Below, piece by piece: positions 5,609-57,627 of a DNA stretch of 64,000 bases. Where the stretch lies: positions 88,900 through 152,899 of the forward strand of contig CADAAN010000001.1 in assembly GCA_902785935.1 (NCBI GenBank), written 5' to 3'. Origin of the DNA: an uncultured Pseudomonadota bacterium. Lineage in GTDB: Bacteria > Pseudomonadota > Alphaproteobacteria > RF32 > CAG-239. Under the pieces are notes generated by a model, which worked only from the letters and a program-made list of their open reading frames with translations, searched no databases and was not told the origin of the DNA. A program made the translations under genes and the position numbers. The first letter of the stretch is position 1. Every line of letters begins with the position of its first letter.

Positions 5609-6145
5609 ATATATGATGTATATATCGGTTTTAAAAATGCGGCTTTTCAGGATGATAGGAAGATAACAAATGCCGAGCTTCCGGCTAACTTGAAACAAAT
5701 CGGACATGCGGCTTTTTACAATACAAGCATCGAATATTTTGCAATTCCGGAGGGATTTAAAAAAAATAATAGCTCTGATTATCAATTGTCAAACAACACT
5801 CATCAGCTCGGAAGTGTTGCACTCAAAGGTATTATTATTGATAGGGATGCGTATTTTGACAAAGATATGCTCTTAGGGGCAAATTTATCAAACATCGAAT
5901 CGATTTATTGCGAAAAATCAAATATAAATTGTCAATCACTCAAAGATGATAACGACTTAAAGAATAAGCTTATTCTTTATGATAAGCAAAGCGACGGCAA
6001 TTCTATGTTAAAATGTAATGGTAAAACCTATCAAAGTATTAATGACCTCTTAAAAGGCAATTATGACGTACGCCGAATCTATACCATTGAAGAAGCCAAC
6101 TTTGTCGCCGGTGAAAAAAATACTTTTTCAATAAGGTACAGATAA
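5609..6145 (+). pseudogene. 5'-truncated remnant of a BspA-type LRR protein carrying the conserved KIRYR C-terminal tail
   Basis: Open frame begins directly after a stop at 5606-5608 with no signal peptide; contains BspA-like LRR motif (IGHAAFYNTSIEYFAIPEG) and ends RRIYTIEEANFVAGEKNTFSIRYR, the tail shared with five other loci. Confidence 0.5.
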
Positions 6146-6212
6146 TTTTTTAACTGTTTGATTTTTCAGTAAAAAATATAAAATGTTTCACGTGAAACAT
6201 CTTAAAAACAGG

Positions 6213-7556
6213 TTATTTTCCGATGCAAAATGAAGAAAATATCTTATCTAAAATTTCATTAACTTCAATTCTGCCCGTGATTTTACCAATAGCACGGGCG
6301 GCAATACGAATATCTTCTGCCCCAAGTTCAATCGGCTTTTCAAAACTAAACCTGTCCAAATTTTCCAAACACTCTTCAAGCGCTTCACGATAGCGAGCCC
6401 GCGTCATCAGATATCCGTTTTGAGAACCTATGCCTGTTTTGATTTTTTGCGTAATCGCTTCAAAAACTTCTTTAAGACCTGCTTTTGTTTTGGCAGAAAT
6501 GAGATAACAACCCTCATTTTTTAATTTAGAACATTGTTCATCTGTCAATATATCTGACTTATTTGCTAAATATAAAATCTTATTTTGAATATCTTTCGGC
6601 AAACTTAAAAATATTTGTTTTGTACTTTGTGTTCCGTCAAAAACAGCTAAAATAAAATCAGCTTCATTCATTTTTTGATAAGCGATCTCAATCCCTTGTT
6701 TTTCAATTATATCTTCTGTCTTCCGAAGACCGGCCGTATCGGTGAGTATGACAGGATAACCATTGACATCCAGATGAATATCTATTGCATCGCGCGTTGT
6801 CCCCGCAATATCCGATACAATTACAGCTTTTCTATCTGTAATAGCATTAATTAAGCTTGATTTACCGGCATTTGTCGGTCCAATAATCGCAACCTTAAAA
6901 CCGTCACGCAATCGCTCACCGATATTTGCATTTTGAATATGATTTCTGATATCTGTTTTAAGTTTAAATACAGTGTTCAAATTTTGTTCAATGACTTCTT
7001 TTGAAATTTCTTCATCCGGAAAATCAATATATGCTTCTAAGTAGGCGTAAATCCTCAAAAGTTCTTCTCTCCAACCTTCATAAAGATTTTTTAAGTTACC
7101 TGACATTTGCAAAACAGCCTGCCTTTGCTGTTCTGATGTTTCAGCATCAATCAAATCGGCAAGACCTTCCGCCTCGGTCAAATCCATTTTTTGGTGATAA
7201 AATGCACGTTTTGAAAACTCTCCAGCTTCAGCCGTTCTGAAATCAGCAATCATTGATAAGCTTTCTAAAACAGAGCTTAAAACAGCCTTTGAGCCATGCG
7301 TTTGAATTTCAACAATATCTTCACCCGTAAAAGAATTTGGCGCCTTAAAATATAAAACAAGGCCTTCATCCAAAATTTTATGCGTTTTTGCGTGATATAT
7401 TTTTGAAAAATAAGCATGTCTCGGTGTTATTTTTAAAACATCAATATCCGTCATTTTTTGAATCGCATCAAGCGCATTTTTACCTGAAATTCTGACAACG
7501 GCAACACCTGATTTTCCATAAACCGTCGAAAGCGCATATATCGTATGACCACACAT
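6213..7556 (-). CDS. mnmE: tRNA modification GTPase MnmE (TrmE)
   Basis: 447 aa, G-domain motifs (GPTNAGKSSL), C-terminal CIGK. Confidence 0.9.
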   Translation of the reverse strand: MCGHTIYALSTVYGKSGVAVVRISGKNALDAIQKMTDIDVLKITPRHAYFSKIYHAKTHKILDEGLVLYFKAPNSFTGEDIVEIQTHGSKAVLSSVLESLSMIADFRTAEAGEFSKRAFYHQKMDLTEAEGLADLIDAETSEQQRQAVLQMSGNLKNLYEGWREELLRIYAYLEAYIDFPDEEISKEVIEQNLNTVFKLKTDIRNHIQNANIGERLRDGFKVAIIGPTNAGKSSLINAITDRKAVIVSDIAGTTRDAIDIHLDVNGYPVILTDTAGLRKTEDIIEKQGIEIAYQKMNEADFILAVFDGTQSTKQIFLSLPKDIQNKILYLANKSDILTDEQCSKLKNEGCYLISAKTKAGLKEVFEAITQKIKTGIGSQNGYLMTRARYREALEECLENLDRFSFEKPIELGAEDIRIAARAIGKITGRIEVNEILDKIFSSFCIGK

Positions 7557-7558
7557 TT

Positions 7559-7846
7559 TTATATCCTTTCAAAAATACCGTCTGTAATCGGCGGTAAAAA
7601 ATAATTTGTCACCTTTGGTAAAAACTCAATACCGTCAACTCTTGACCATAACGGACCCTTGCGACATAAGGCGATTATTTCTTCAACATCTACTTCCTTA
7701 CCTTTGACCAAAACCTCAACAGAACCATCCTCGGCATTTCGTACCCAGCCGGAAAGGCCGCCGATTTTTTTAGCCGAATTTAACACAAAGCGCCGAAATC
7801 CGACGCCTTGTACACGACCTTTGATTTTAAAATAAATTTCATGCAT
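7559..7846 (-). CDS. acyP: acylphosphatase
   Basis: 95 aa; GRVQGVGFR and GWVRN signatures. Confidence 0.75.
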   Translation of the reverse strand: MHEIYFKIKGRVQGVGFRRFVLNSAKKIGGLSGWVRNAEDGSVEVLVKGKEVDVEEIIALCRKGPLWSRVDGIEFLPKVTNYFLPPITDGIFERI

Positions 7847-10008: not shown

Positions 10009-10012
10009 TTTA

Positions 10013-11380: not shown

Positions 11381-12687
11381 TTTTTTTGCCTTTCCTGTTT
11401 TTGTTTTCTTAAATTGTCAAAATAATCAATACGTTTTTTAATTTCGCGCTCAAAACCACGTTCAACCGGCTCATAAATTTTAACACGCTCCATCGTATCC
11501 GGAAAATAATTTTGCCCTGAAAAACCGTCTTTTAAATCCTGATCATAAATATACCCTTCATGATATCCGAGATTTTTCATCAGTTTTGTCGGCGCGTTCA
11601 AAATGTGTTTCGGCGGCATTAAAGAACCTGTTTTTTTTGCCAAACCGTATGCCTTATCCATCGCTTTATAAACAGCAGCCGATTTCGGTGCTGTTGCAAG
11701 ATAAGCCGTCAATTGCATCACGGCTAAATCACCTTCCGGTGAACCTAAACGCTCATATGTTTCTGCTAAAGCTATTGCCTCAACAATCGCATTCGGGTCG
11801 GCAAGTGACACGTCCTCAATCGCAAAGCGCACCAGACGGCGCAAAATATATCGAGGATCTTCACCTGAGATTAACATCCTTGCCACCCAATAGAGCGCCG
11901 CATCAACATCCGAACCTCTGAGTGATTTATGCACGGCTGAAATCAGATTGTAATGTCCATCGCGGCCTTTATCATAAACAGGCGCACGCGAGCGAACAAT
12001 ATTCATAACATTTTCTTTATTAAAAATTTCACCTTGCTTGGCATACGCCCAAATACTTTCCGCTAAATTTAAAATATAACGTCCGTCACCGTCTGCAATT
12101 TGTTTTAAGAATGTGCGCGCTTCATCATCAATCGGCAATTTTTGCCCGATTTCTTTTTCCGCACGCGAAAGCAAAATTTCAAAATCATCTTCATTTAAAC
12201 GATTGAGTACAAAAACCTGACAACGTGATAATAAAGCGGCGTTAAGTTCAAATGACGGATTTTCCGTTGTTGCCCCGACCAAAATCACCGTACCGTCTTC
12301 AACATAAGGTAAAAACCCGTCTTGCTGAGATTTATTAAAACGATGAATTTCATCAACAAATAAAAGTGTCCCTTTTCCTTGGTTTGAACGCCGTTCAATC
12401 GCATATTGAAAAACACGCTTTAAATCAGCTACACCTGAAAAAACAGCTGAAATTTGCTCAAAATAAAGATTTGTATGCTCTGCCATCAAGCGTGCGATTG
12501 TTGTTTTACCGCATCCGGGAGGGCCCCATAAAATAAATGATGTAATTTTACCTGTTTCAAGCATACGTTTTAATGGTGCATTATCACCCGTTAATTGTTC
12601 CTGACCGACAACTTCATTTAAATTTTGAGGACGTAATCTGTCTGCAAGCGGACGTTTGAGTTGTGCTGAAAAAAGCGTATCTTCCAT
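11377..12687 (-). CDS. rarA: replication-associated recombination protein A (AAA+ ATPase RarA/MgsA)
   Basis: Walker A GPPGCGKTT, LRP.L..V.GQ motif; start placed at internal MEDTLF. Confidence 0.9.
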   Translation of the reverse strand: MEDTLFSAQLKRPLADRLRPQNLNEVVGQEQLTGDNAPLKRMLETGKITSFILWGPPGCGKTTIARLMAEHTNLYFEQISAVFSGVADLKRVFQYAIERRSNQGKGTLLFVDEIHRFNKSQQDGFLPYVEDGTVILVGATTENPSFELNAALLSRCQVFVLNRLNEDDFEILLSRAEKEIGQKLPIDDEARTFLKQIADGDGRYILNLAESIWAYAKQGEIFNKENVMNIVRSRAPVYDKGRDGHYNLISAVHKSLRGSDVDAALYWVARMLISGEDPRYILRRLVRFAIEDVSLADPNAIVEAIALAETYERLGSPEGDLAVMQLTAYLATAPKSAAVYKAMDKAYGLAKKTGSLMPPKHILNAPTKLMKNLGYHEGYIYDQDLKDGFSGQNYFPDTMERVKIYEPVERGFEREIKKRIDYFDNLRKQKQERQKK

Positions 12688-12688
12688 C

Positions 12689-13906
12689 TTATCTGCCCTC
12701 ACGGCCCGTATTAGAGTGTGCTATAATTTGATTTTGTTTGGCTTTTTTAAGCTCTTCTTTTAATTTATTTTGCTGCATTTTTTTATATTCATCTTTTCTG
12801 AACTGGATTTCACGTTTTTCATTTTCTTTTTCTTCTTTTTCTTTGCGTACTTCATATTTTTTTTCTTCCAGCTGGCGGCGCATTTTTTCATGCCGCTCTT
12901 TTTCAATTTGCTCCGGCGTTTTTAAATTGCGGCTATGGAATTTATCTAAAATTTCTTCATCCGTATCCTGACGCTTTAAGAAAGCATCGTAAAGTTTTTT
13001 TCCGGCACGCATAATATCTTCAATCCGAACACCGGGATGTTTTCGTGCATCCCAAACGCCGGCCGGTCCGACAGCAAAGAAAAATTCCGTTAAATCAATA
13101 CCTCTTGATTTTTTCTTTTTCTTCTTCGGTGCTAAAATTTCTTTCAATTCCTTAGGTGTTACGGGGCGCCCTAAAGCTTGTTCTATTTGCGCTTGAGAAA
13201 TAATACATTCACTCAAATCAAGCTCATAAATATTCACACCCGTAAAATTACAACCTGTAAAATCAACACCGCGCAAATCAAGTTGCTTTAAATCAATTTT
13301 TGATAAATCAAGCAATGTCAGATTAATACGTCTTAAATTAAGTTTATGCGGATAGTAAGTCGCCAAAAATTCAACCAGCTCCTGAAGTTCTTGCAATGCG
13401 ATTTCATCCATATCAACATCAAGCAAAATCGCATCTTCAATATCCGCATCTTTTAGTTTTACACCGCGCATTTTAGCGCCGGTAAAGTTTGTCCCTTTTA
13501 AAACAGCGCCCGTAAAAACGGCATTGTTTAAGTTTGCACCGGATAAATCCGCCTCAGTCAAATTTGCACCCGAAAAATCAACACCTTGTAAATCGGCATT
13601 TTTTAGATCGGTATAACTTAAATCAGCATTTGAAAAATCAGCATTTTTCAAATTTTGTTTTGCAAATTTTTCACCAATTAAACTTTGTGCATGAAAATTT
13701 TGGCCATTGTTTTTATGAAATGTTTGAAGTGAAAGTTTATCATCACCTTCTTTAATCGTTACATCAGAAATCGCTTGCCATGAAAAATTATTTTCATAAA
13801 GCCTATCTAAATTATACTCTTTCAGGCTTTCATCAGAACGTGTCTGACGGACTTTTTCTTTCAAATCCGAAATATGAAATGATTTTTTTTCACCTATTTC
13901 CGACAC
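12689..13906 (-). CDS. pentapeptide-repeat protein with Lys/Glu-rich coiled-coil C-terminal tail
   Basis: Long run of A(D/N)L..A.L pentapeptide repeats (NADLSYTDLKNADLQGVDFSGANLTEADLSGANL...) followed by KE-rich tail. Confidence 0.7.
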   Translation of the reverse strand: MSEIGEKKSFHISDLKEKVRQTRSDESLKEYNLDRLYENNFSWQAISDVTIKEGDDKLSLQTFHKNNGQNFHAQSLIGEKFAKQNLKNADFSNADLSYTDLKNADLQGVDFSGANLTEADLSGANLNNAVFTGAVLKGTNFTGAKMRGVKLKDADIEDAILLDVDMDEIALQELQELVEFLATYYPHKLNLRRINLTLLDLSKIDLKQLDLRGVDFTGCNFTGVNIYELDLSECIISQAQIEQALGRPVTPKELKEILAPKKKKKKSRGIDLTEFFFAVGPAGVWDARKHPGVRIEDIMRAGKKLYDAFLKRQDTDEEILDKFHSRNLKTPEQIEKERHEKMRRQLEEKKYEVRKEKEEKENEKREIQFRKDEYKKMQQNKLKEELKKAKQNQIIAHSNTGREGR

Positions 13907-13971
13907 TTTTTTATCCTTTTATATAAAACAACGTCAGTTTATCTTATTTTTATAACAAAAACAAGATTTTT

Positions 13972-14637
13972 TTAAATCATTTTTTCTATCGTTTTTTGAA
14001 TATCTTTCATGTCATCAAAAACATAATTAACTTGAAGATTTTTGACTTCATTAAAATAATCTTTATTAAAAGGATTAATGTATTTTGTAAAACAAATCGG
14101 CATCATTTGTGCTTTTAAGGCTGCTTTAAGTCCTGCAACAGAATCTTCAATAACGATACAATCTTGAGGTTTAACACCTGATTTTTGAGCCGCAAGTAAA
14201 AACAAATCAGGCTCAGGTTTTCCTTTTTGAACCATATCGGCCGTAAAAACTTTATCAGGCGTAAAGTAATCACTCAAACCGACAATTTTTATCTTTATTG
14301 CTGTTTTTTCTTTCAAACCACCGGTTGCAATGCATTGTTTGATATTAAGATTTAATATATCTTGAACACCATCTGTTAAATCAAAACCTTTTTCATACAT
14401 TGCCTTATAGTCAAGTTCTTTATTTTTTATCCAAAAATCATTGGTTGTATGCAAACCTAATTTATCCAAAACTTCACGTTTTGTTTTATCACTCATACCG
14501 AGTAAATAGTTTGATGTTGTTGAAAAATCCCAGTTAAGACCGAATGTTTCGTTAATGGTTATCATTCTGTTATAAAGCCATAATTTTTCGGTATCTGCCA
14601 AAACGCCGTCAAAATCCCATATGATTAATTTTTTCAT
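13972..14637 (-). CDS. HAD-superfamily hydrolase (beta-phosphoglucomutase-like)
   Basis: N-terminal IWDFDGVLADTE (DxDG motif I). Confidence 0.7.
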   Translation of the reverse strand: MKKLIIWDFDGVLADTEKLWLYNRMITINETFGLNWDFSTTSNYLLGMSDKTKREVLDKLGLHTTNDFWIKNKELDYKAMYEKGFDLTDGVQDILNLNIKQCIATGGLKEKTAIKIKIVGLSDYFTPDKVFTADMVQKGKPEPDLFLLAAQKSGVKPQDCIVIEDSVAGLKAALKAQMMPICFTKYINPFNKDYFNEVKNLQVNYVFDDMKDIQKTIEKMI

Positions 14638-16298: not shown

Positions 16299-16375
16299 GC
16301 GCTCTTAGCTCAGCAGGATAGAGCAACAGCCTTCTAAGCTGTGGGTCGGGCGTTCGAATCGCCCAGAGCGCGCCA
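16299..16375 (+). tRNA. tRNA-Arg (anticodon TCT)
   Basis: Cloverleaf read directly: acceptor gcgctct/agagcgc, D-arm tagctcagcaggatagagc, anticodon stem acagc/gctgt with loop cTTCTAa, T-arm gggcgttcgaatcgccc, encoded CCA. Confidence 0.9.
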
Positions 16376-16680: not shown

Positions 16681-16865
16681 CGATTTCGAACCGCTTGCCT
16701 CTTCACCTCAGGTAAAATAGCCAACAAAAAACCTCCCACAAGGGGAGGTTTCATGTTGGCTGCCCATCCTGTACAGTGACGCAACTTTTACAACAACACC
16801 GCAAAGAAGTAATTTCCATCAAAGACCAACTCCGTTATGTGAGGGAAAGATTAGCAGCATAATTC
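16681..16865. repeat. direct repeat copy 1 (core ~105 bp ~90% identical to copy 2, plus weaker upstream extension with preceding hairpin)
   Basis: 16758-16865 aligns to 17924-18031 with ~12 mismatches; both preceded by a hairpin and a tt(t)cgaaccg motif. Confidence 0.7.
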
Positions 16866-17862: not shown

Positions 17863-18031
17863 ACCGATAAAAATGAAGAAAAAACAAGGGCTTACGATAC
17901 AAAATCGAAGCCCTGTTCAAATTGGCTGGGCGTCCTGTACAGTGCCGCAACTTTTACAACAACACCGCAAGGAAGTAATTGCCATCAAAGAACAACTCAG
18001 TTTTGTTAGGGAAAGATTAGCAGCTTAAATC
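17863..18031. repeat. direct repeat copy 2 (overlaps 3' end of a 65-aa ORF 17831-18028)
   Basis: See copy 1; the two copies flank the repeat-protein gene. Confidence 0.7.
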
Positions 18032-21949: not shown

Positions 21950-24900
21950 ATGAACTTGAATATAAAATTAATGCTTTTTATAGCAATTTTTTCTACTTTT
22001 TCCTATGAAACTCAGGCACGATATTTATCTACAGGTGATATTTATGAATATGCCAGAACTCGTAATTACTGGGCATTATCGAAAATTGCACGATATGTTG
22101 ATATGCAAGATGGTAGTGGTAACACAGCCTTGTGTTTAGCTGTTGCTAACAAAGATGAAAAAGCTTATAATGTTTTAATCCAGTATGGTGCAAATCCTCA
22201 ACCTTATTGTTTACAGTCGGCAATTGTGGCAAGTGGCAGCAGTGGAACATTTTTAGGTATGGGAACGACTGGGTGGCTAACCACAGGAGCAATAGTTGCC
22301 GCTGGCGCAGGAGTTGCAGCTGCTGCTGGTGGAGGCGGTGGCGGAGGTGGTTCGTCAGATTCATCATCTTCAAACAATCCCTCTCCATCAATTACTTGTG
22401 TAAATGGTTCAATAAGTAGTGGTCAATGCCAATGTGATGAAGGTTGGATTGGTGACACTTGTGACACAGTGCAAACCTGTTCTTATAATACAACATCATG
22501 TTCAAGTGGTTATGAAGAAACTGGTAATACATGCAAATCAGGCAGCATAACGTATAAAGAATGTAAAGCCAAAACAGTTCCGAGTGGATACACAATAACA
22601 CCATGTGGTGATGGTTATATGCAAATTGGTACATTTTTATCAGGAACACAGACTTATTACAAATGCCAAGCAAATACTTGCGCGGGATATCAATCCAGTT
22701 GCGGTGATGGTTATCATGCAACAACAGATACTTGTTTATCTGGTACAACAACTATGTATAAATGTGAAGCAAATGTGTGTGAAGGGTATGTGGATGGTTG
22801 TAGTTCGGGTTATCACGCAACAACAGACACTTGTTTGTCTGGTGCTAAAACTATGGTGAAGTGTGAAATCAATGATTGTTCTGAATACCAAACAAGTTGC
22901 GGTGAAGGATATAATGCAACACAAAGTTGTTTAAGTGGGAATACGCCATATTATACTTGTACACCAAAAGAAGTACCTACTGGGTATACCTCAACACCTT
23001 GCAGTGAAGGATATATTACAAAAGATACCATTATATCTGGTACAACACCTTATTATAAATGCGAAGTAAATGCTTGTACTGGATATGTGACAAGTTGTAA
23101 TCAAGGTTATCACACAACAGCGGATACTTGTAAATCAGGTTCAAAGACTATGTACAAATGTGAAGCTGATAGTTGTACTGGTTATAACTATACAGTTTGT
23201 CCAACGGGGTATGCGCAAAGTGATAGCTGCTTATCGGGTCTTACAATGAAGTATAAATGTGAGAATTGTGCAAACGGTTACGGAAGAGATGAAAAAGGTA
23301 ATTGTGTAACAAAAGAGGCAGATAAAGTCATAGCTACAGGAACCGCAAATAATATAGATCGTACTTATACTGATACCTTAACCATAAAAGGGTACAAAGA
23401 TTTATATGTTTTCAAAGGAAATTACACTTACGCTGCTAATGCTGAAACATCTGGGACATCTTCTTATCAAACAATAATTATGGACGTAATAAAAAAAGGA
23501 GATGGCGATTTCTATGGTGTGTTTAATAGTCAAGGTTCTAGCTATAATTCCAAAAACGCTGATGGAACTATCAAATTAGAAAAAACTGGTGACGGAGATG
23601 TGTATGCCCTTTGGGGAGAAGACGGTGTATCTAATTCGTCAGCATCAGGATCATATGGTGAGACAGCCACAGGTAATATTGAAATTTTGAATAACGGAAA
23701 TGGTAATATATATGGTGGTTATTCCAAAGAAGGTTCTACTATCAATGCATATTCAGGCAAATCATCAGGTATTGCTAATGGAGCAAGTACTGGTATCATA
23801 AAGATGTTAAATAATGGAGACGGAAATGTATACGGTTTACTATCCGATACAAAAACAGGAACTAACGCCAGTTCCGTTAATACTGTAGGCAAAAATTATA
23901 GCACTACATCCTCTGCAGAAGGACGTATAATTATCAATAATACAGGAGATGGTGACGTGTATGGAATTAAAAGCGGTTCGGATGTATATAATACCTCTAG
24001 CCTAATAAGAGGTGGTGCATCTGGTAGTGATATTAGATACGGAAATACAAATGTAGATGGATATATACGAATAAAGAACAGCGGAGGAGGAAATTCGTAT
24101 GGACTGTATGGTACAAACACGTATAGCTCATCATTTGAAAGTGATGCAGAATATACAACTGTTGTTGCCTTACAAACTTCTAATAGTGTAATAGATATTT
24201 TGAATTTAGGTAAAGGCAATGCATATGGTATGTATGCGGTAGGAACAAGCTCTGCCGTTGCCAAGGCCGAGAACCGTACTTATTCTGGCAGTTTTTCTCT
24301 TTATCCAGACCAAACGTATTCAGCAACATCCAATATTAAAATATTAAATAATGATGATGGATTTGTTGTAGGAATTTATAGCAAAGGAAAAGTTACAAAT
24401 GATGGCAATATTACTATTCATAATCTTGGAGAGGGAACAGCTATAGGAATTTATGCTGGTAATGCCATTCAAAATTCAACAGTAACAAATTCTGGAAGTA
24501 TCAATATTACACGTGTTAATTACATAGATGACAACGCTACACAAGATGATACATCAGATGATGAGAATTATACAGCTACATCTATGGCTGGTGGTACAAG
24601 TATCGGTATCTATGGGGCTTCAGGTTCAACAATTAAAAATACGGGGACGATTACAATTAGCGGAGCTTCCATAGCCTATGGTATTTATGCTGAATCGGGA
24701 GCAACAGTCAAAAATACTGGCACAATAACGATTGATGGTAATACAAATCATGTAAATAAAATCAAGCTTAACGGTTCACCGCTTTTTCAAGACGGTAAAC
24801 TGATTGTTACAAACAACACTCAAAGCAGTCTGATGTCTGTATCAAGTGTTAAACCAGCTTCACTAAATCTAAACGATTTTGGAGGAACTGTAGTAGCGTC

Positions 24901-26344: not shown

Positions 26345-26917
26345 ATGAAATTTTTATATGCTCGTGTTTCAAGTTCAGACGGTTCGCAAAAACTCGATCG
26401 TCAACTTGTGGAATCTGGTAAATATGATGAAATTTTTGAAGATTACGCTTCAGGTGGTTCAACAAATCGTCCTAAACTGCAAGAAATGTTGAAATGGATT
26501 AGAAAAGGTGATGTGGTGGAAGTTCATAGCATTGACCGCTTAGCAAGAAACATCAATGACCTACTGCAAATCGTTAAAACCATTACAGAAGAACGTCACG
26601 CTGAAATCTACTTTATCAAAGAAAATCTACGTTTTACTGATGATACCGATAATCCATTTAACAAACTAACCCTTCAAATCATAGGTAGTATAGCCGAATT
26701 TGAAAGAAATATGATTAAAATGCGTCAGAAGGAAGGTATTGCTATTGCCAAAGCAAAAGGTGTTTATTCTAAGGAACGGAGCAAAAAATTATCGCTATCC
26801 AAACAAGCCGAATTGAAAAAAGACATTCAAGATAAAGTCCGTGTATGTGAAATCCTCAAGAAATACGGAATAACGAAACCCACATATTATCGCTATAAAG
26901 CACAATGGGAAGAATAA
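26345..26917 (+). CDS. small serine recombinase (resolvase/invertase family) with C-terminal HTH
   Basis: 190 aa; N-terminal YARVSSSDGSQKLDRQ catalytic-serine motif; TTGACA-17-TATACT-like promoter upstream. Confidence 0.85.
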   Translation: MKFLYARVSSSDGSQKLDRQLVESGKYDEIFEDYASGGSTNRPKLQEMLKWIRKGDVVEVHSIDRLARNINDLLQIVKTITEERHAEIYFIKENLRFTDDTDNPFNKLTLQIIGSIAEFERNMIKMRQKEGIAIAKAKGVYSKERSKKLSLSKQAELKKDIQDKVRVCEILKKYGITKPTYYRYKAQWEE

Positions 26918-26946
26918 TAGTAAATGGTTGTAATTTTCCGAAGTTC

Positions 26947-27288
26947 TCAGCCAAAATCTTTCTTTAGGAGTTGTATATATTCTTCTATATGTGCAAGTAG
27001 CTGATCATCTAACTGGTAAATCGTTTGTATGACCTGATTTTCCTTCCTGATACGTGTGACTGATTTGTTTTTTGTTATCCGTGCGTCTAGTAATTCATCA
27101 ATACTTATATCAAAGTAATTAGCTAAAGCACAAACCAACTCTAACTTTGGTATTACTTTTCCTGTTTCCAAATTTGATATTGTTCTCCAACTGACACCTA
27201 CTGCTTCAGCTAATTGTTCTTGAGTTAGCTTTTTTGTTTTGCGTAATGCTTGAACTTTTGAACCAATTTGAACAGGATCAACAGTCAT
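26947..27288 (-). CDS. XRE-family HTH transcriptional regulator
   Basis: HTH LTQEQLAEAVGVSWRTISNLETGK; immediately downstream of the nuclease gene on the same strand. Confidence 0.7.
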   Translation of the reverse strand: MTVDPVQIGSKVQALRKTKKLTQEQLAEAVGVSWRTISNLETGKVIPKLELVCALANYFDISIDELLDARITKNKSVTRIRKENQVIQTIYQLDDQLLAHIEEYIQLLKKDFG

Positions 27289-27289
27289 T

Positions 27290-27757
27290 TTACTTTTTCT
27301 CTTTGGATTTTTTCAATACACTTGATGGTATGTACTTATTACAACCACCTTGATCAAGCATATATTGGTTAACATCAATCACACCAGCGGATTTTATGTC
27401 ATCCAGATACACTTTTCCTAAAATACGACCAAAAGAATCACGTTTTTCCCACTCAACCCGTATATACCGATGATCTTTAAGTAGATTTTTTAGCTGTTTC
27501 CGTGATTGCTTACCGTGTTTAATGACTTCATCAACCGACAAACCATAGTATTTTTGCTGAAATCTGGTGTTGCTATTCTTTCCTGTTTCATAGCAATCAA
27601 CATCCAGCAAGCGAATTTTAGTCGTTTCATTATTAACCAGAGCCGTCAATGTATCGCCATCGTTAATCTTGATGATAGTTGCAACAAATTCGTGTGCTGA
27701 TACCGATTGCACCAACAAAATCGTGAATAAAACCAGATAAAAAACCGTTTTTTTCAT
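27290..27757 (-). CDS. secreted thermonuclease (SNase/micrococcal-nuclease-like)
   Basis: Start placed at MKKTVFYLVLFTILLVQSVSA (signal peptide); SNase-type motifs (IKINDGDTLT...IRLLDVDCYE). Confidence 0.7.
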   Translation of the reverse strand: MKKTVFYLVLFTILLVQSVSAHEFVATIIKINDGDTLTALVNNETTKIRLLDVDCYETGKNSNTRFQQKYYGLSVDEVIKHGKQSRKQLKNLLKDHRYIRVEWEKRDSFGRILGKVYLDDIKSAGVIDVNQYMLDQGGCNKYIPSSVLKKSKEKK

Positions 27758-28370
27758 CAACTCTTCCATAAAAGAAGACCACCTTTTGATTAAGGCGGTC
27801 GGAGAGTTCAAAATCAAGTCTACGAGTTGATCCTTCCAACCTTTAGAGCAAAACTCCTATTGTATACGTTGGAAGCTCCCCGACCATCATCGGGGATATA
27901 TACATCATCAGCCTTTATACAAGCTGACAATGTTGTCGGCGTATATCCACACCGCGTAGACAGAGGTTTTGAAGCCCTCCGCACCTTTTCGGGCACTGAG
28001 CACAGAATAAACCTGTGCCTAACCAGACAATATAGCAAGAATCTTAAAAATCAATAAAAAAGGAGAAAGAAGTTAAAAAGCCTTCTAATTCCGTACATTT
28101 TACTCAGCTAAAATTTCCGTTTATGTCAGATAAATGGAAATTTATTTTCGAAAGTGTCGTCAAGAAAAGAATTCTAAAAATGTAACTAGCGACATTGGGT
28201 TTTCGTCCGCTAGGAGACCTTAGCTTAAGTTACAAAAATGAAAAACTTAGAAGAAGACATAAAAAAACTAATCGGTGCGACAGATGAAACGTTAGATCAA
28301 ACCGAAACATTATTTAAATTTACAAAAGCAATGGAATGTTTGAACAATTGTATAAAGGAGGGAAAAAACA

Positions 28371-29702
28371 ATGAAAGCAGTGACGTTTGCAAGAGTTTCG
28401 TCAAAATATCAGGAACAGAATTACAGTCTGGAAGGGCAAAATACACACCTTTTCAATTATGCCAAAGCAAATAAACTCGACGTTATAAAATCTTATGAGA
28501 TTTCTGAAAGTGCGACAAGAGGTGATCGCACAAAATTTAAGGAAATGATAGATTTTTGTTGTTCGCAAAAGGAATGTGTTTCAATCATAGTAGACGATGT
28601 TGACCGCCTTTTGAGAACGTTTTCGGATGCGCCAGAGATTGAAAAACTTGTACAAGAAGGACAAATAGAGATACATTTCTATAATACGTCTCTTATTTTG
28701 ACGAAAAATTCAACACCTGATGATTATTTAAAATTTCACGAATTAGTTTTAGATTCGGAAAAATATATAGCAAAGTTTAAGAAAAATACAGCTCGTGGTC
28801 GAAATGAAAAAGTTATGGAAAAATGTATGGCCGCTTGGAAAGCACCTTGTGGTTATGAGAATTTTGAGCAAGATGATAAAAAAAAATCGATTCGAAAAAA
28901 AGAACCAGATGCCACAAATCTAAAGAAACTTTTTGAACTTTATTCCTTAGGCGGAACATCAATTCGTAAATTAGTTGCTTTAGCTGATGAGTACGGAATC
29001 AAAACAAAAAATGGAAATAAAATTGGTGTATCCACTATGATTGGGATTTTAAAAAACCCGTTTTATTACGGAGAAATGTGTTATAATGGTAAATTATATC
29101 GACACAATCACGGTGCTATAATATCAAGAGAGTTATGGGAAGCTTGTCAAAAACAGCATAAGCTTCAATCATCAAAGTCATTCAAGCAAGGTCGAATTCC
29201 TTATCTGTATCGGAATGTTTTTAAGGATTGGTACAAAAACCTTACTTGCTCTTGTGAAACAAAGAAAAACAAGTATATCTATATAAGTTACTATAGAGAT
29301 TCTAAGTATAGGTCTTATGTGAATGAAAATGATATTAATGACCAAATTGTTAGCATTCTAAACCAAATTTCAATACCAAAAAATTTTATAGATGATTATA
29401 ATCTTTATATACAATCAACACAACAAGATGAAATTGCATTTAAAGCTGCTGAAAATGGGCATATCAAGGCTGAAATAACAAAATATGATAATAGATTAAG
29501 CAGATTACTTGATAGATTTCTTGATAATGAAATGCCAGAAGAAGAATATGAAAAGAAAAAGCAGGAATATGAAGAAGAAAAATCAAAACTCGAAAAGAAA
29601 ATCCAAAATCAAGGTACAATTGAACCTGATTCAAAACAAATTTCAACAGAATCAATTCATTTATTCTCTCGTTTAGGTGATTCCAAATGGGACTGGATAT
29701 AA
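28371..29702 (+). CDS. large serine recombinase (paralog A), probably frameshifted at its 3' end
   Basis: N-terminal catalytic domain (FARVSSKYQEQNYSLEGQ), recombinase domain and zinc-ribbon (APCGYENF...CSC), strong SD aaggaggg. The ORF stops at 29702 but homology to paralog B continues in another frame to ~29827 (NKQMLLRLIFKELKIRDG vs NKQLLLHFIFEKLELKEG). Confidence 0.8.
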   Translation: MKAVTFARVSSKYQEQNYSLEGQNTHLFNYAKANKLDVIKSYEISESATRGDRTKFKEMIDFCCSQKECVSIIVDDVDRLLRTFSDAPEIEKLVQEGQIEIHFYNTSLILTKNSTPDDYLKFHELVLDSEKYIAKFKKNTARGRNEKVMEKCMAAWKAPCGYENFEQDDKKKSIRKKEPDATNLKKLFELYSLGGTSIRKLVALADEYGIKTKNGNKIGVSTMIGILKNPFYYGEMCYNGKLYRHNHGAIISRELWEACQKQHKLQSSKSFKQGRIPYLYRNVFKDWYKNLTCSCETKKNKYIYISYYRDSKYRSYVNENDINDQIVSILNQISIPKNFIDDYNLYIQSTQQDEIAFKAAENGHIKAEITKYDNRLSRLLDRFLDNEMPEEEYEKKKQEYEEEKSKLEKKIQNQGTIEPDSKQISTESIHLFSRLGDSKWDWI

Positions 29703-29891
29703 AAAACAAGCAAATGTTACTGAGATTGATATTCAAAGAACTCAAGATTCGAGATGGAAATGTTGGGTATAGCCTTAACGAACCATTTTCCTATTTTATT
29801 AAACAAGAATCTCAAGCATCAGCATAACTTTATTAATTAATTTGATTAAATTTCGAAGCTCTGGTAAATTTACCAAAAAGGAAACGAAACT

Positions 29892-31583: not shown

Positions 31584-31587
31584 AGCA
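31514..31587 (-). tRNA. tRNA-Gln (anticodon CTG)
   Basis: Minus-strand cloverleaf read directly: acceptor tgcttca/tgaagca, anticodon stem gcgga/tccgt with loop ttCTGac, T-arm cttggttcgagtccagg, discriminator g plus CCA; resembles enterobacterial tRNA-Gln anticodon/T arms. Confidence 0.8.
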
Positions 31588-31707: not shown

Positions 31708-31959
31708 TGGAGTGCCCTGATAGGGTACGGGGCTTTAAAACAGCCTTTCAGATAGACAGTGAAGGATAACGCTGTATTTAGTGTTGTTTTTTTGTTTTAA
31801 ACAATAGTTATCCCCGACAGATGTTGGGGAGTCTGTAACGGATGTACAAGGATATATTCCTAAAGGTTATGGAAGTCATTTTCTATCTGATGATTGTTTT
31901 ACTCCCCGTCGCTCTTTAAAAGTGCGGCTTTTTTAAAACGTAAAAACAGGAGAAATAAT
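31708..31959 (+). promoter_or_regulatory. conserved structured 5' leader (copy 1) ending in a terminator-like hairpin immediately upstream of the RBS of the LRR gene
   Basis: ~75% identical to the minus-strand leader at 57368-57627. Shared blocks: ccctgatagggtacgggg, cagtgaaggataac.ctgt, tagtgttgttttttt, ttatccccga, ggaagtcattt, ccccgtcgctcttt..ggtgcg.cttttttt. Hairpins are maintained with compensatory changes. Confidence 0.5.
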
Positions 31960-32913
31960 ATGAAAAAAAATATTTTAACTTTAAGTTTGATTTTGTGTTT
32001 CAGTCCGATTGGTGTAGCTTCGGCAGATGTTATCAGTTGCACAAACGGCTTAAGAGAAGATGGTGTGACAGCTTGCGATAAGTGCGGGGATCATTGCGAT
32101 TGGGCATTTGATGAACAAACCGGAAATCTTAGCGTATCAGGCAGTGGTGATATGTATGATTTTAATATGACTTTGGACCCCGGACCATGGAAATGGTACA
32201 ACACAGCTCCGTGGAAGGATTTTGCAGGTGACATCACATCTTTGGATGTGAAAGGCTTGTCTTATATCGGAAACGGGGCATTCGGAGGGACTTTAAATAA
32301 CCTGACTTCAGTCAGTTTTGATGATAAGCTCGAACAAATAGGTGGGCAAGCTTTTGATACGGCAAATCTTTCAAATTTAAAACTTCCGGATTCCTTAAAA
32401 AGAATTGACTCTTGGGCTTTTTCCGGTAATCTCAATCTGGCATCCGTTGAAATACCTGATTCTTTGGAATACATAGCTGCCGCAGCATTCTGGAACAGTG
32501 ATATTTCCTCTCTTACATTGCCGGATACAACTGGTATTTCAATCAAGTATCCTTTTGGGGCAAGGCACCTTTCTGATATGCAGATTGTTTGTCGCGGTAG
32601 TGAGGAAAATTGCAACTACCTGAAAGAAAAATTGGCACATTATTGCACGAATCCGAGCGGAGTTGATTGTAATGATGAAACTTATCAAGTTGACTTATCA
32701 GGCAAATTCAGTTTAGCCAATAAGAATAATTGCAACAGTGCGACTTATTATTGGGACGGATTGAGTTGCAAAAAAGAAGGTATAAACGGTGAGAGAACTT
32801 GTGTCAACGGGTTTAGAAAAAATGAGGCATACTGCGCACGCGTCATTTACACCATCGATGAGGCAAATAAGGTGGCGGGCAAGACAAATTCGGTCAAAAT
32901 CAGGTATCGATGA
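31960..32913 (+). CDS. secreted BspA-type leucine-rich-repeat protein with conserved KIRYR C-terminal tail
   Basis: Start placed at MKKNILTLSLILCFSPIGVASA (signal peptide). BspA-like LRR repeats (IGNGAFGG..LTSVSFDDKLEQIGGQAFD...LKLPDSLKRIDSWAFSG). C-terminus RVIYTIDEANKVAGKTNSVKIRYR. Confidence 0.8.
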   Translation: MKKNILTLSLILCFSPIGVASADVISCTNGLREDGVTACDKCGDHCDWAFDEQTGNLSVSGSGDMYDFNMTLDPGPWKWYNTAPWKDFAGDITSLDVKGLSYIGNGAFGGTLNNLTSVSFDDKLEQIGGQAFDTANLSNLKLPDSLKRIDSWAFSGNLNLASVEIPDSLEYIAAAAFWNSDISSLTLPDTTGISIKYPFGARHLSDMQIVCRGSEENCNYLKEKLAHYCTNPSGVDCNDETYQVDLSGKFSLANKNNCNSATYYWDGLSCKKEGINGERTCVNGFRKNEAYCARVIYTIDEANKVAGKTNSVKIRYR

Positions 32914-39108: not shown

Positions 39109-40113
39109 GTGTCAAAAACTTTTTCAAAAGCACTTCTTGATTGGTATGCTCGTTTCGGGCGCGATTTACCGTGGCGTTTTAAGGGCGGAGCGCACCCAAA
39201 TCCTTATATCGTACTTGTTTCAGAATTAATGCTTCAGCAAACAACGGTCAAAACAGTGCTTTCATATTTTGATAAATTTATCAAGCGCTTTCCTGATGTT
39301 CAAAGTTTGGCGTCAGCACCGTTGGAAGAAGTTTATTTATATTGGCAGGGCCTTGGTTATTATACGCGTGCAAAATCGCTGCATCAAAGTGCTCAAATCA
39401 TTGTTTCAGATTTTAATGGTGTTTTTCCAAGCAAAAAAGAAGATGTTTTAAGACTCAAAGGTTTCGGTGCATATACCGTTTCAAGTTTTTTGGCTTTTGC
39501 TTTCAATGCCCCTCAAACGGTTGTTGACGGTAATGTTATACGCATTATGGCGCGGCTTTACCATTTAACTGACCCTGTTGATGAGATTATGCAAGACGTT
39601 ATACAAAAAGCGCAAAATCTAACCGATACACAAAATGCGGCGGATTATGCCTCCGCAATTATGGATTTAGGCGCAACGATTTGTACTAAAAAAAATCCGC
39701 TTTGCAATCAATGTCCGGTTAGTGATTTTTGTCTTTCAAAAAATCTTGACGACAAGGAGCAAATTCCGTTAAAGAAAAAAATACTCAAAAAAGATTTTAA
39801 CGGATATGTTTATGTCATTAAAAACAAAAAAGGTGAAATTTTAATCAGAAAAAGGACTGAAAAAGGTCTTCTTTCCGGACTTTATGAATTTTTATGGAGC
39901 GAAAACAAGCTTTTTAACAACGCTTTTGAAACCGACCTGTATGTATCGCACGTCTTTACGCACATCAATATGAAGTTAAAAATTTGCACTTTAACAACTC
40001 AAAAGACACCTTCAGACGGTTTTTTTGTAAAGCCTGAAGATTTGAAAAAATATGCCTTTTCAACTTTAATGCAAAAAGTGATTAAAAAATCAGAATTTTT
40101 TATCTGTACCTGA
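39109..40113 (+). CDS. mutY: A/G-specific adenine DNA glycosylase
   Basis: HhH-GPD fold, 4Fe-4S cluster Cys motif (C.NQC.VSDFC), C-terminal NUDIX-like domain. Confidence 0.85.
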   Translation: MSKTFSKALLDWYARFGRDLPWRFKGGAHPNPYIVLVSELMLQQTTVKTVLSYFDKFIKRFPDVQSLASAPLEEVYLYWQGLGYYTRAKSLHQSAQIIVSDFNGVFPSKKEDVLRLKGFGAYTVSSFLAFAFNAPQTVVDGNVIRIMARLYHLTDPVDEIMQDVIQKAQNLTDTQNAADYASAIMDLGATICTKKNPLCNQCPVSDFCLSKNLDDKEQIPLKKKILKKDFNGYVYVIKNKKGEILIRKRTEKGLLSGLYEFLWSENKLFNNAFETDLYVSHVFTHINMKLKICTLTTQKTPSDGFFVKPEDLKKYAFSTLMQKVIKKSEFFICT

Positions 40114-40681
40114 TAGAAAAAGTATTGACCTCTCCGCTGGCATTTTCAGCTTCTTTTATGGTATAAATACGTTTTCCTTTATAATAAAAATTTGCTACAC
40201 TTTTCATTTTTTTTGTGTGTAAAAAATTTGTTTTGCATTGCTCTAAATCTCCATAACAGTTGATTTTGATATTCGGGCTGTCGCTAAAATCATCTTGATC
40301 AGCCCATACAGTTGTATCATGCATCGTTACACTTTGTAAGCCATGAATCTCATCAAACGCAGCAGTATCAACATATTGCACACTTTTTGAAAGTTCAATT
40401 GTTTCGATATGATAACAGTTAAAAAATGCGTTATACCCGACATTTGTTATTCCGTCATCAATAACAACTTTTTTGATATACCCTTTATAATCAGCCCATG
40501 GTAAATGAAATCTTTCATATTCATCATTATAACCTCTCATTTCACCATTTCCTTCAACACGCATTATACCGCTTTCGGTATCAAGTGTGGCCGTACACTG
40601 CTCCCCGCATTCATAAGTCTTTATTTCTGCCTTTGCACTAAAGCTTAAAAATAAGCTCAAAATCAAAACATATTTTTTCAT
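40100..40681 (-). CDS. secreted BspA-type LRR protein with KIRYR C-terminal tail
   Basis: Signal peptide MKKYVLILSLFLSFSAKA; LRR motifs (ITNVGYNAFFNCYHIETIELSKSVQYVDTAAFDE); C-terminus KRIYTIKEAENASGEVNTFSIRYR. Confidence 0.75.
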   Translation of the reverse strand: MKKYVLILSLFLSFSAKAEIKTYECGEQCTATLDTESGIMRVEGNGEMRGYNDEYERFHLPWADYKGYIKKVVIDDGITNVGYNAFFNCYHIETIELSKSVQYVDTAAFDEIHGLQSVTMHDTTVWADQDDFSDSPNIKINCYGDLEQCKTNFLHTKKMKSVANFYYKGKRIYTIKEAENASGEVNTFSIRYR

Positions 40682-44315: not shown

Positions 44316-44528
44316 TTGTTTTGTTATTGTGATGAAATCTTAAAAAGTCATGGTATATCAAGTTACAGCCTCACAGCTGCGCCATATACCGAAAAATATG
44401 ATGATGGGAGTGTCGGGATATTCAAAGACGGTAAACTACTTTCTTTAACAGGCAAGCGCATTTATACCATTGATGAGGCCAATGCCGTCGCAGGTAAGAC
44501 AAATTCGGTCAAAATCAGATATCGATAA
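44316..44528 (+). pseudogene. remnant carrying only the conserved KIRYR tail of the LRR family
   Basis: 70-aa ORF with no signal peptide or LRR body, ending GKRIYTIDEANAVAGKTNSVKIRYR; the 3' ~70 nt are nearly identical to the 3' end of the gene ending at 32913. Confidence 0.45.
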
Positions 44529-44553
44529 AAATCTTGCAAAATCCGTCTTATAT

Positions 44554-47746: not shown

Positions 47747-47750
47747 AAAA

Positions 47751-50046: not shown

Positions 50047-50144
50047 ATTTTATTCCTCTTTATGCGAGATAATAAAATACTTTATGTTAAAAAAGTATGA
50101 CTTTCAAGGCAAAATAATCAAAAATTTACGCAATGATGCAAATT

Positions 50145-50366
50145 TTAACGATATCTTATCTTAACCGAATTGACTTTACCTGCTACGGCATTCGCCTCAT
50201 CGATAGTATAGATGCGCTTGCCTTCAAAACCGAGGATATCGCCACTTGCATTTTTTATCGTTGTGCTACCATCCGCATTTGTCGATTCGCTATAAGCGTA
50301 TGAATTTTGTGAGCTTATTTCTGTTGAGTATTTGCCGCCGGAGAAACGGTAGTAAACACCAGACAA
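50145..50366 (-). pseudogene. remnant carrying the KIRYR tail of the LRR family
   Basis: 73-aa ORF with no signal peptide, ending GKRIYTIDEANAVAGKVNSVKIRYR. Confidence 0.45.
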
Positions 50367-50914: not shown

Positions 50915-50931
50915 AGTATAGGAGACACACG

Positions 50932-51183: not shown

Positions 51184-51221
51184 AGCATTGCTTTAAGGTC
51201 AAATTTAAAGGCGGGGTATAA

Positions 51222-52328
<1,107 letters not shown>

Positions 52329-52344
52329 TAAAAGGAGAAAAATT

Positions 52345-52686: not shown

Positions 52687-52846
52687 TTTTTTTAAGATAC
52701 AATGCATTGGCGGATGAATAAAAATTTTCACCCGCCATATTTTGTACTCAAAAAGACTGAAAATAAAAGCATCATTTAATGATATTTTCAGGTCAAACAA
52801 ATACTTTTTCGATTCGCTATCGATAAAAGTTTGCAAGGCTCAATAC

Positions 52847-56401: not shown

Positions 56402-56494
56402 TTTTTGTTCCGATTTTTGGTTACAATTGGTGCTGATTATAAAGCGCTATTTGTAAATTTTGCGTTAAAAACAGATGACTTTAAGGGCTTAAAA

Positions 56495-57367
56495 TTATCT
56501 GTATCTGATGCTGACGCGATTTGTTTTGCCCGCAACTTGATTTGCCTCATCGATGGTATAGATACGCTTTTCTGTTCGGCTCCCGAAATGTGCCGCAATA
56601 TTGCCTTTAGCGTCTAAAACGTATTGCACCCCGTTGATTTCTTTTGTTGTTGCTTTCATAGATTTTAATTCGGGATATCCTGCGTCGTCTAAATTTTTAT
56701 CGCATTTATCCGTATCCCCGATGCAATAAATTTTTATCCTTGATGTATCCGTTAAGGGCTCCCCCTCAACCTCCGGTTTAAATATCGCTCCGAATTTTGT
56801 ATCTTCACCGATTGTCAATGTTTCAATCTCACACCAACTTAAAGCCAAATCCGCGATAGAGGTCACCGAATTAGGAATAATGATATCCTTAAAAGTTCCG
56901 CCTCTGAAGGCTATATCAATCGTTTCAACAGAATCCGGTATATTTAAGCGGTCAATATGACTCCAGTCAAAAGATGCATATTCCAATTTTTTAACCGTAT
57001 CCGGAATAATGATTTCAGGTGCCGTAATTCCGCGAAAAGCGTAACCGTTAACCGCTTCTAAACCGGAGGGAATCTTAATCGAATTTTGGCTTATCATACC
57101 CGAAAAAGCAGAGTCACCAAGATCTTTGATAGAAGAATCAATTTCAATACCTTTGACTGAGCTTGTTTGATCCTTCCAAGGCGCATTTTTATTATCATAC
57201 CAAGATCCTATATTTCCTTTGCCATTTGTTCCACGAATAGACAATATGCCATTTTCAATTTGCCACTCGCAATTTGCCGTATTACCATTGGCGTCTGTGC
57301 CGCAAGCTTCCCATGCATTGGCATTAAAACTTAAAACCAAACCCAAAACAAAAATCCATTTTTTCAT
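56495..57367 (-). CDS. secreted BspA-type LRR protein with KIRYR C-terminal tail
   Basis: Start at MKKWIFVLGLVLSFNANA (signal peptide); LRR motifs (IKDLGDSAFSG...IPSGLEAVNGYAFRG...IPDTVKKLEYASFD...IPDSVETID); C-terminus KRIYTIDEANQVAGKTNRVSIRYR. Confidence 0.8.
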   Translation of the reverse strand: MKKWIFVLGLVLSFNANAWEACGTDANGNTANCEWQIENGILSIRGTNGKGNIGSWYDNKNAPWKDQTSSVKGIEIDSSIKDLGDSAFSGMISQNSIKIPSGLEAVNGYAFRGITAPEIIIPDTVKKLEYASFDWSHIDRLNIPDSVETIDIAFRGGTFKDIIIPNSVTSIADLALSWCEIETLTIGEDTKFGAIFKPEVEGEPLTDTSRIKIYCIGDTDKCDKNLDDAGYPELKSMKATTKEINGVQYVLDAKGNIAAHFGSRTEKRIYTIDEANQVAGKTNRVSIRYR

Positions 57368-57627
57368 ACCATTTCTCCAAATTCTTGTTAAAATCATTAA
57401 AAAAGTCGCACCTTAAAAGAGCGACGGGGAATGCGAAAATCATAGTATCTGAAATGACTTCCGAGGCCTTTAGATGGAATATCTTGAACATTCGCCACGG
57501 ATTCCCCGACTTTTTCGGGGATAAATGTTGGTTTAAAATAAAAAAACAACACTACAAAAACAGTGTTATCCTTCACTGCAGACACTAAGGCCTTCGCAAG
57601 CCCCGTACCCTATCAGGGTACTCAACA
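57368..57627 (-). promoter_or_regulatory. conserved structured 5' leader (copy 2) with terminator-like hairpin just upstream of the RBS of the LRR gene
   Basis: Reverse complement aligns to 31708-31959 over its full length, including the terminal gtcgc-tcttttaaggt-gcgac hairpin plus T6 ending ~25 nt before the ATG; a TTGACA lies ~50 nt upstream on the minus strand. Confidence 0.5.

Follow-up and report, generated by a model that had tools for sequence, protein, structure and literature searches.

Leucine-rich repeat (LRR) proteins of the BspA type, such as BspA of Tannerella and the proteins of structures 4h09, 4fd0 and 4fs7, combine a signal peptide with a solenoid of LRR_5 repeats and are expanded in host-associated organisms. 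They end in diverse C-terminal modules, namely the C-terminal domain (CTD) of the type IX secretion system (T9SS) in Bacteroidota and Ig-like, dockerin or cell-wall-anchoring modules in Firmicutes. Among described terminal signals, the T9SS CTD, LPXTG, PEP-CTERM and GlyGly-CTERM are each lineage-specific, lie at the end of many otherwise unrelated Sec-exported carriers and occur tens of times per genome. This work deals with a 64,000-nucleotide stretch of contig CADAAN010000001.1 (assembly GCA_902785935.1, positions 88,900 to 152,899; hereafter the window) from an uncultured alphaproteobacterium of the CAG-239 lineage. Its BspA-type proteins share the repeat, fold, overall plan and expansion mentioned above, and terminate in a 24-residue tail with the consensus KRIYTIDEAN.VAG..N.V.IRYR-COOH, which resembles the four signals in its lineage restriction, terminal position, variety of carriers and copy number. 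This tail is a lineage-specific, undescribed C-terminal module carried by a massively expanded family of secreted repeat proteins, and about half of the genes of this family are preceded by a putative regulatory leader RNA.

A six-frame motif search of the window detected exactly six copies of the tail, fitting the pattern (K/R)RIYTI(D/E)EAN.VAG..N.V.IRYR and each directly followed by a stop codon, the stops ending at 6145, 32913 and 44528 on the forward strand and beginning at 40100, 50145 and 56495 on the reverse strand. They belong to three intact genes and three 5'-truncated remnants (Table 1). An earlier note on this DNA had described three intact secreted LRR genes and three remnants, and both the description and its coordinates were confirmed by the six-frame search and by Pfam; the "six-member family" that it proposed does have six copies in the window, but the whole family counts hundreds of members, of which these six are a small sample. 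The translations of genes 1-3 start with MKK, a hydrophobic stretch and an AxA-type site, typical of a Sec signal peptide, and they score 41.8-71.6 bits against Pfam PF13306 (LRR_5), for a gathering cut-off of 27.7. Gene 3 was modelled by AlphaFold2 as an LRR solenoid, with a mean predicted local distance difference test score (pLDDT) of 90.3, and the top Foldseek matches of its body in the PDB were BspA-type LRR surface proteins (4h09, 4cp6, 4fd0, 4fdw, 4fs7 and 4gt6), the structural likeness extending to pneumococcal PcpA. The bodies of the window members are 18-35% identical and their tails 50-79%; the tail of gene 2 (KRIYTIKEAENASGEVNTFSIRYR) is the most divergent, and that of gene 1 has R-V in place of K-R.

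The remnant at 5609-6145 starts directly 3' of a SpoU methylase gene, and in tblastn its codons up to 6142 align over 178 aa with P0157, a full-length homologue (residues 142-316, 82% identity), the LRR hidden Markov model (HMM) matching the C-terminal half only. The two shortest remnants retain only the last 50-97 residues, and the homology of the one at 50145-50366 can be traced to about 50426. The tails of these two form an inverted pair of 81 nt, 84% complementary, 5.6 kb apart and with six open reading frames (ORFs) between them, an arrangement that could have been left by an ancient inversion or deletion involving members of the family.

The position of the tail proved to be strictly constrained. 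Of 225 proteins, 196 had the start of its motif 24 residues from the C-terminus, 28 had it at 25 residues and one at 28; the motif lay 23-28 codons before the stop in all 137 matches found in six-frame translations of the fetched loci, and no internal motif was seen in either set, each protein having a single copy. Twelve of the 24 positions are at least 93% conserved among 239 proteins (R-23, I-22, Y-21, T-20, E-17, A-16, N-15, G-11, N-8, I-4, Y-2 and R/K-1). In the same set, the last residue is R (85%) or K (15%) after a penultimate Y; position -24 is K in 86% and position -23 R in 99%. Averaged over 61 family members, pairwise identity was 0.67 for the tail, 0.37 for the signal peptide and 0.29 for the body. 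This agrees with the earlier note, by which the tail is more tightly conserved than the LRR domain and sits on proteins with signal peptides; the intact genes 1-3 and the full-length members of the family have such peptides. The further statement that the last 70 or so nucleotides are conserved at the DNA level was overstated: the 72-nt tails of the window are 53-82% identical, and only the pairs 32913/44528 and 44528/50145 (named by their stops) reach about 80%. Third codon positions are 17-62% identical, identical residues mostly use different codons, and most pairs of tails share no long identical run of DNA. Since the synonymous sites are thus close to random, the conservation of the tail is ascribed to purifying selection on the peptide. 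Taken together, these comparisons of coding sequences show a tail held constant by selection on the protein, at an invariant distance from the free C-terminus and independently of the body attached to it.

This tail has no match in Pfam, NCBIfam or the sequences of the PDB, and is therefore not the end of a domain annotated in the first two. The best PDB-sequence match of its profile was the N-terminus of ribosomal protein L1 (E = 0.11), judged to be a chance strand-helix match. No specific literature was found on rumen alphaproteobacterial LRR families or on a matching RNA motif.

Beyond the window, an exhaustive HMMER search of 1.84 billion cluster representatives (50% identity clusters) with a 44-column tail profile yielded at least 742 protein clusters with E<=1e-3, of which 189 reached E<=1e-10, and the match ended on the last residue of the protein in all 150 matches listed. 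Among the best 120 homologues of gene 3, about 90 have the tail, or one very similar to it (...KRIYSIEEASLVSKKTGNTFKLRYK), at their C-terminus. These tail-bearing homologues come from metagenome-assembled genomes (MAGs) labelled Alphaproteobacteria, while the LRR_5 homologues from Firmicutes and Bacteroidota among the same 120 lack the tail. Orthologues of gene 3 in many MAGs, at 44-69% identity, retain it; the tail is thus kept by orthologues in relatives as well as by paralogues. A pattern scan of 185,579 GTDB genomes, one per species, gave 86 confirmed tail loci. The 80 of these that were listed all lie in five rumen alphaproteobacterial MAGs, more than 55 of them in RUG11221 alone, and among them the family was found only in small-genome rumen Alphaproteobacteria. 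Such hosts are uncultured rumen Proteobacteria with genomes of less than 1.5 Mb (PMC6785717).

Short tail-only ORFs and remnants of 39-90 aa (P0121-P0148, L023(-), L030 and L068) are common in other contigs of the lineage, and only short ORFs were matched when the 44-residue profile was run against a word-indexed database. Such ORFs indicate rapid birth and death of family members, some of them being probably gene fragments cut at contig ends. A phage origin of the tail or the leader was considered and rejected, as 2.9 million viral contigs contained no tail and a single occurrence of the leader.

The bodies that carry the tail are not all of one kind. LRR_5 was recognised by Pfam in 99 of 111 full-length tail proteins; the tail also ends signal-peptide proteins that have YD/RHS-like or MORN-like hairpin repeats and no LRR (P0164, P0166, P0176, P0205, P0226, P0232, P0248 and P0264), and can therefore be regarded as a portable module. 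The region just before the tail takes at least three unrelated forms, namely YD-like hairpins, a "GK.Y.S..D...GNY" segment and, in gene 1, a Cys-rich stretch. The tail is basic (mean net charge +3.5, pI 10) and the body acidic (-12.5, pI 4.7). In the last strand of the tail, conserved hydrophobic positions (V/F, I, Y) alternate with variable ones. In the AlphaFold2 model of gene 3 the tail has a pLDDT of 65-73 and forms only a short helix over IDEANQVA; the same short helix is seen in a YD-type member, with a pLDDT of 48-63, so that in two unrelated body types a helix (IDEAN.VA) is flanked by coil of lower confidence. This picture fits an appended element that would need a partner in order to fold.

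Two origins suggested by resemblance were set aside. RHS_repeat matches occur in the bodies (for instance at residues 201-230 of P0264) and never in the last 24 residues, and the core of the tail is modelled as a helix and not as the hairpin of an RHS/YD repeat; a loose resemblance to the YD repeat remains. A likeness to the helix-turn-helix of MerR and excisionase proteins (yTI.EaA...G....lRYy) was dropped, given the lack of any helix-turn-helix match in Pfam and the single helix of the AlphaFold2 models.

Comparison with known C-terminal signals sets the tail apart from each of them. It is not of the sortase, exosortase or rhombosortase type, as it has no hydrophobic run of more than three residues and no transmembrane helix and ends in IRYR; in line with this, the NCBIfam models for LPXTG, PEP-CTERM and GlyGly-CTERM do not match it. 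Nor is it a T9SS CTD, with 24 residues against a beta-sandwich of 70-100 and hosts in Alphaproteobacteria rather than Bacteroidota, and no CTD model of Pfam or NCBIfam matched the tail proteins. The alternating V/I/Y pattern is similar to that of the outer-membrane beta-signal, a resemblance only, since the tail ends in R or K and not in an aromatic residue (usually Phe) and the bodies are soluble LRR solenoids. Type I (RTX-type) signals differ in that full-length members of this family start with a Sec-type signal peptide. A similar design is seen in PcpA and the Listeria protein InlB, LRR adhesins in which a variable LRR binding domain is followed, as here, by a constant basic C-terminal element; the beta-hairpins that precede the tail of gene 3 recall choline-binding or YD hairpins. 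The choline-binding repeats of PcpA and the GW modules of InlB, which hold these proteins on the cell surface non-covalently, are repeated units of 20-80 residues that bind teichoic acids of monoderms, whereas the tail is a single 24-residue unit in a diderm without a Pfam match, and neither CW_binding_1 nor GW/SH3b modules were detected by Pfam in 111 tail members, so that this comparison of anchors is an analogy only.

Expression of part of the family may depend on a shared leader. In the window, the regions 5' of genes 1 and 3 agree at about 75% of positions along some 230 nt, although synonymous sites within the genes are close to random. The element can be compared with terminator-containing riboswitches and antitermination leaders of surface genes, such as cyclic di-GMP riboswitches, the EAR RNA and the RfaH/LoaP-dependent leaders. 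It resembles them in its location in the 5' untranslated region, its sense orientation, its fixed distance to the start codon, its several helices, its intrinsic terminator and the adhesin, pilin, outer-membrane protein and glycosyltransferase genes found downstream. It differs from them in matching none of the 4227 families of Rfam 15, the best score at E<=10 being 18 bits for cut-offs of at least 40; only tRNAs reached the Rfam gathering scores in the window and eight metagenome loci. A third, more diverged copy was found, whereas none was detected upstream of gene 2 by comparison of the window DNA and nhmmer. As copy 3 precedes a gene for a secreted protein resembling staphylococcal nuclease (SNase), the leader is not confined to the LRR family.

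The predicted fold of the leader comprises several helices closed by a long-range stem, with conserved unpaired blocks, and covariation supports it. In an alignment of 29 sequences, 23 of the 42 predicted pairs showed compensatory changes and 96.7% of cells could pair, against 84.3% after shuffling and 38-49% with partners slid. In 120 distinct sequences with a 55-pair structure, the corresponding values were 92.2%, 78.0% and 37-46%, with 1094 double-change cells against 353 in the shuffles. Every one of the eight pairs of an 8-bp long-range helix showed compensatory changes and occurred as four or five pair types. This helix serves either to lengthen the closing stem or, together with the invariant AGUCAU...AUGAUU hairpin, to make a pseudoknot; single-sequence folds (z-scores -5.6 and -7.6) favour the nested form. 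In most copies the leader ends in a covarying GC-rich hairpin and a U-run, 10-40 nt before a GGAG ribosome-binding site, and nearly all full-length matches lie in sense orientation just upstream of an ORF. These features suggest a riboswitch or antitermination leader that would act through its terminator on a regulon of cell-surface genes.

Of 57 regions that precede family genes in other MAGs, 30 were matched by a profile built on copies 1 and 2. Scanning for four invariant blocks placed the leader in at least 120 metagenome contigs, mostly from the rumen and some from human gut, and nhmmer confirmed it in 118 of the 120. A tail-bearing LRR gene followed in 32 of 36 matches in GTDB loci and in 60 of 115 in metagenome loci. 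The other downstream genes encode prepilin-type pilin-like proteins, an outer-membrane beta-barrel protein, a lipoprotein, an XRE regulator, secreted nucleases and enzymes (GT2, pyruvyl-transferase and GT-D-like). These alignments thus give good support to a structured RNA, apparently uncatalogued, that has a clear read-out in its terminator and a regulon made up coherently of cell-surface genes.

Some further observations concern the leader and the genes below it. Some contigs, of which several come from human gut (L170:14113-14822(-), L094:8669-9508(+), L115, L119 and L108), have two to five tandem copies of its 3' sub-domain alone (model positions about 117-214), sometimes ahead of a full copy, which suggests that the core is modular or tandemly arranged. 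More than 4000 relatives of the pilin-like family that follows the leader are present in databases. A VirB8 homologue and an Fe-hydrogenase are encoded on contigs of related MAGs (L209:6649-7413, 12438-14528; L208:1-987), along with a 696-aa protein that has PilS/bundlin (type IVb pilin) domains. Machinery was sought through the co-regulated pilin-like genes, which are scattered singletons too; in one MAG only the VirB8 homologue and a PilS/bundlin-domain protein were encoded nearby, which is taken as a lead and not as a link.

As regards function, we lean, with a confidence that falls somewhat short of even, towards the tail being a common handle used after Sec export for sorting or surface anchoring. 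A sorting or retention tag is favoured because of the Sec signal, the exact terminal position, the conservation, the portability, the lineage restriction, the copy number and the unpacked models of low confidence. After export, the tail would be recognised by one conserved partner, which would direct the protein to the cell surface or retain it there by non-covalent contact. The basic tail, folding as a strand, a short helix and an amphipathic strand, might dock onto an envelope protein by beta-strand augmentation, with the help of electrostatic contact with the anionic outer-membrane surface. The shared terminator-containing leader would switch many family genes as well as pilin-like, outer-membrane and polysaccharide genes, and the family would belong to a co-regulated cell-surface programme. 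A surface role of the tail family is independently supported in that the putative regulon of the leader consists of cell-surface genes. By analogy, a variable binding domain with a constant anchor matches the architecture of other adhesin families. A wider proposal, which we regard as rather doubtful, is that of a two-part hypervariable-adhesin system in a genome of about 1-1.5 Mb, in which an undescribed sorting or anchoring pathway of diderm Alphaproteobacteria would read a short, exactly terminal, non-hydrophobic peptide on Sec-exported proteins and a new class of riboswitch or antitermination leader, with a pseudoknot-like fold, would switch the entire set of surface proteins (LRR adhesins, pilin-like proteins, outer-membrane proteins and glycosyltransferases).

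Several points weigh against such a handle. No partner, transporter or processing enzyme was identified, no gene recurs beside the 80 family loci (420 ORFs compared), and the family genes are scattered singly among housekeeping genes. We know of no diderm sorting signal that resembles the tail, and the analogy is one of architecture alone. A tail packed weakly on its own protein would likewise agree with the moderate pLDDT, and a family-specific structural role with the share of about 90% LRR_5 carriers. Since half of the six copies in the window are dead remnants and yet have a perfect tail, an intact tail is by itself no proof of current function.

The serious rival to a handle is a purely structural role without targeting, the tail acting as a C-terminal cap, as a mini beta-alpha-beta unit that stabilises the preceding hairpins or as an oligomerisation motif. 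We consider it rather improbable. It is in line with the usual position of the tail after YD-like hairpins or the conserved "GK.Y.S..D...GNY" segment, with the loose likeness of "YTIDEAN.V" to the YD repeat core (Y.YD..G.L) and with the predominance of one body type, found in about 90% of carriers; the strand-helix motif IYTIDEA, also present at the N-terminus of ribosomal protein L1, may moreover be an ordinary folding unit. Yet the tail stays unchanged behind pre-tail regions of at least three unrelated kinds (that of gene 1 being Cys-rich), its conservation far exceeds that of the domains to be stabilised, AlphaFold2 packs it confidently in neither body type, and an exact protein end at Y-[RK] would be unusual for a cap. 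A role as a translocation signal, for export from the cell or for delivery to a eukaryotic host, be it rumen protist or epithelium, for example through a type IV secretion system (T4SS) of the VirB/D4 type with a periplasmic intermediate, is unlikely. The basic C-terminus with its R...R.R pattern and the VirB8 homologue of a related MAG point in that direction, as does the host-associated lifestyle suggested by LRR expansion and a genome below 1.5 Mb; all members, however, have Sec signal peptides while most T4SS substrates are cytoplasmic, known T4SS signals are loose charge patterns and not 12 invariant residues, and no T4SS genes were found in the window or near family loci. It is more improbable still that the tail is a pro-peptide, cleaved at the dibasic K-R before IYT to remove or release a 22-residue peptide active on its own: the fixed length and the frequencies of K at -24 (86%) and R at -23 (99%) would suit such a site, but gene 1 has R-V there and no associated protease was found.

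The remaining explanations place the cause in the DNA. The earlier note had also considered the tail as a homology patch that would let recombination or gene conversion shuffle LRR bodies, with truncated copies as silent donor cassettes. The retention of the tail by three 5'-truncated copies, the frequency of short tail-bearing ORFs elsewhere, the 81-nt inverted pair of remnant tails (84%) and the layout of a variable middle between a conserved 5' leader and a conserved 3' tail could all be read in this way. The proposal was nevertheless not supported, given near-random synonymous sites and few long identical runs of DNA, and we hold it to be very improbable: at 53-82% identity, and 17-62% at third positions, most pairs of tails are too diverged for RecA-dependent exchange, a crossover at the extreme 3' end would swap nothing coding, the remnants were ascertained through their tail, which biases its retention, and the leader is kept by RNA structure, as its covariation indicates, and not by DNA identity. 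A single recent segmental duplication of whole genes, for which nothing speaks beyond the similarity itself, has a negligible probability in view of bodies only 18-35% identical, unrelated flanking DNA, near-random synonymous sites and the tails kept by gene 3 orthologues at 44-69% identity in many MAGs.

Table 1. Tail-bearing genes, leader RNA copies and other features of the window (MFE, minimum free energy; positions are those of the window).
Feature	Position	Strand	Description
Gene 1, intact	31960..32913	+	317 aa; signal peptide, LRR_5 body (Pfam E=7e-20), Cys-rich pre-tail region, tail
Gene 1 tail codons	32839-32910	+	Motif search
Gene 2, intact	40100..40681	-	193 aa; short LRR_5 protein; tail codons 40103-40174
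Gene 3, intact	56495..57367	-	290 aa; signal peptide, LRR_5 body, three pre-tail beta strands, tail
Gene 3 tail codons	56498-56569	-	Motif search
Remnant, 5'-truncated	5609..6145	+	Without start codon or signal peptide; tail intact (6071-6142)
Remnant	44316..44528	+	Only YD-like pre-tail hairpin and tail (codons 44454-44525); without start codon, without LRR
Remnant	50145..50366	-	Only YD-like pre-tail region and tail (codons 50148-50219); without start codon or signal peptide
Inverted pair of remnant tails	44450-44530 / 50143-50223		81 nt
Leader RNA copy 1	31709..31938	+	Upstream of gene 1; nhmmer E=3e-51; MFE z-score -5.6
Leader copy 1 terminator hairpin	about 31907-31927	+	U-run about 20 nt before ribosome-binding site
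Leader RNA copy 2	57397..57625	-	Upstream of gene 3; terminator about 57405-57425; MFE z-score -7.6
Promoter-like site, leader copy 2	57683-57655	-	TTGACA-17-(TG)CACAAT, just upstream
Leader RNA copy 3, more diverged	27769..27997	-	nhmmer E=6e-15; upstream of secreted staphylococcal-nuclease-like gene
Secreted SNase gene	27290-27765/27817	-	Pfam SNase; inside recombinase-rich island
Recombinase island	26345-31587		Three serine recombinase genes, XRE regulator, leader-preceded secreted SNase
Last recombinase ORF of island	29892-31583		Overlaps tRNA-Gln
tRNA-Gln	31514-31587	-	
ORF, 1391 aa	21950-26125	+	At least five tandem 99-nt (33-aa) repeats at 22622-23262
ORF, 1184 aa	52847-56401	-	Directly downstream of gene 3
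tRNA-Arg	16299-16375		
Direct repeat	16750-16865 / 17916-18031		116 nt, 88% identity

Other features of the window include the recombinase island, the last recombinase ORF of which overlaps tRNA-Gln, which suggests an element integrated at this tRNA gene; gene 1 and its leader begin just beyond the island. The 1391-aa ORF has no Pfam match on record, and its tandem repeats contain Cys. The 1184-aa ORF below gene 3, also without a Pfam match on record, looks like an autotransporter: it combines a signal peptide and a Gly run with Cys-rich EGF-like motifs and many "G.VYG(I/L)Y" repeats, and its C-terminus reads ...GLKYAF. Such a neighbour is not a general feature of family loci. The 116-nt direct repeats flank an unannotated 265-aa ORF just downstream of tRNA-Arg, with Dam methylase and DUF3768 genes adjoining, and may be the attachment sites of a small integrated element.

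The small-genome rumen Alphaproteobacteria are abundant and uncultured, and have been proposed by their authors as core members of the rumen community (PMC6785717). More than 55 tail genes likely represent several percent of the coding capacity of one genome. The leader offers a testable candidate for a riboswitch or an antiterminator. As the bodies differ everywhere except in the 24-residue tail, the tail and its reader point to a central role in the presentation of adhesins. If it is a true sorting or anchoring tag, the tail would extend the few kinds of signal known in diderms by a new one, and would provide a simple sequence handle with which to catalogue the surface proteome of this lineage.

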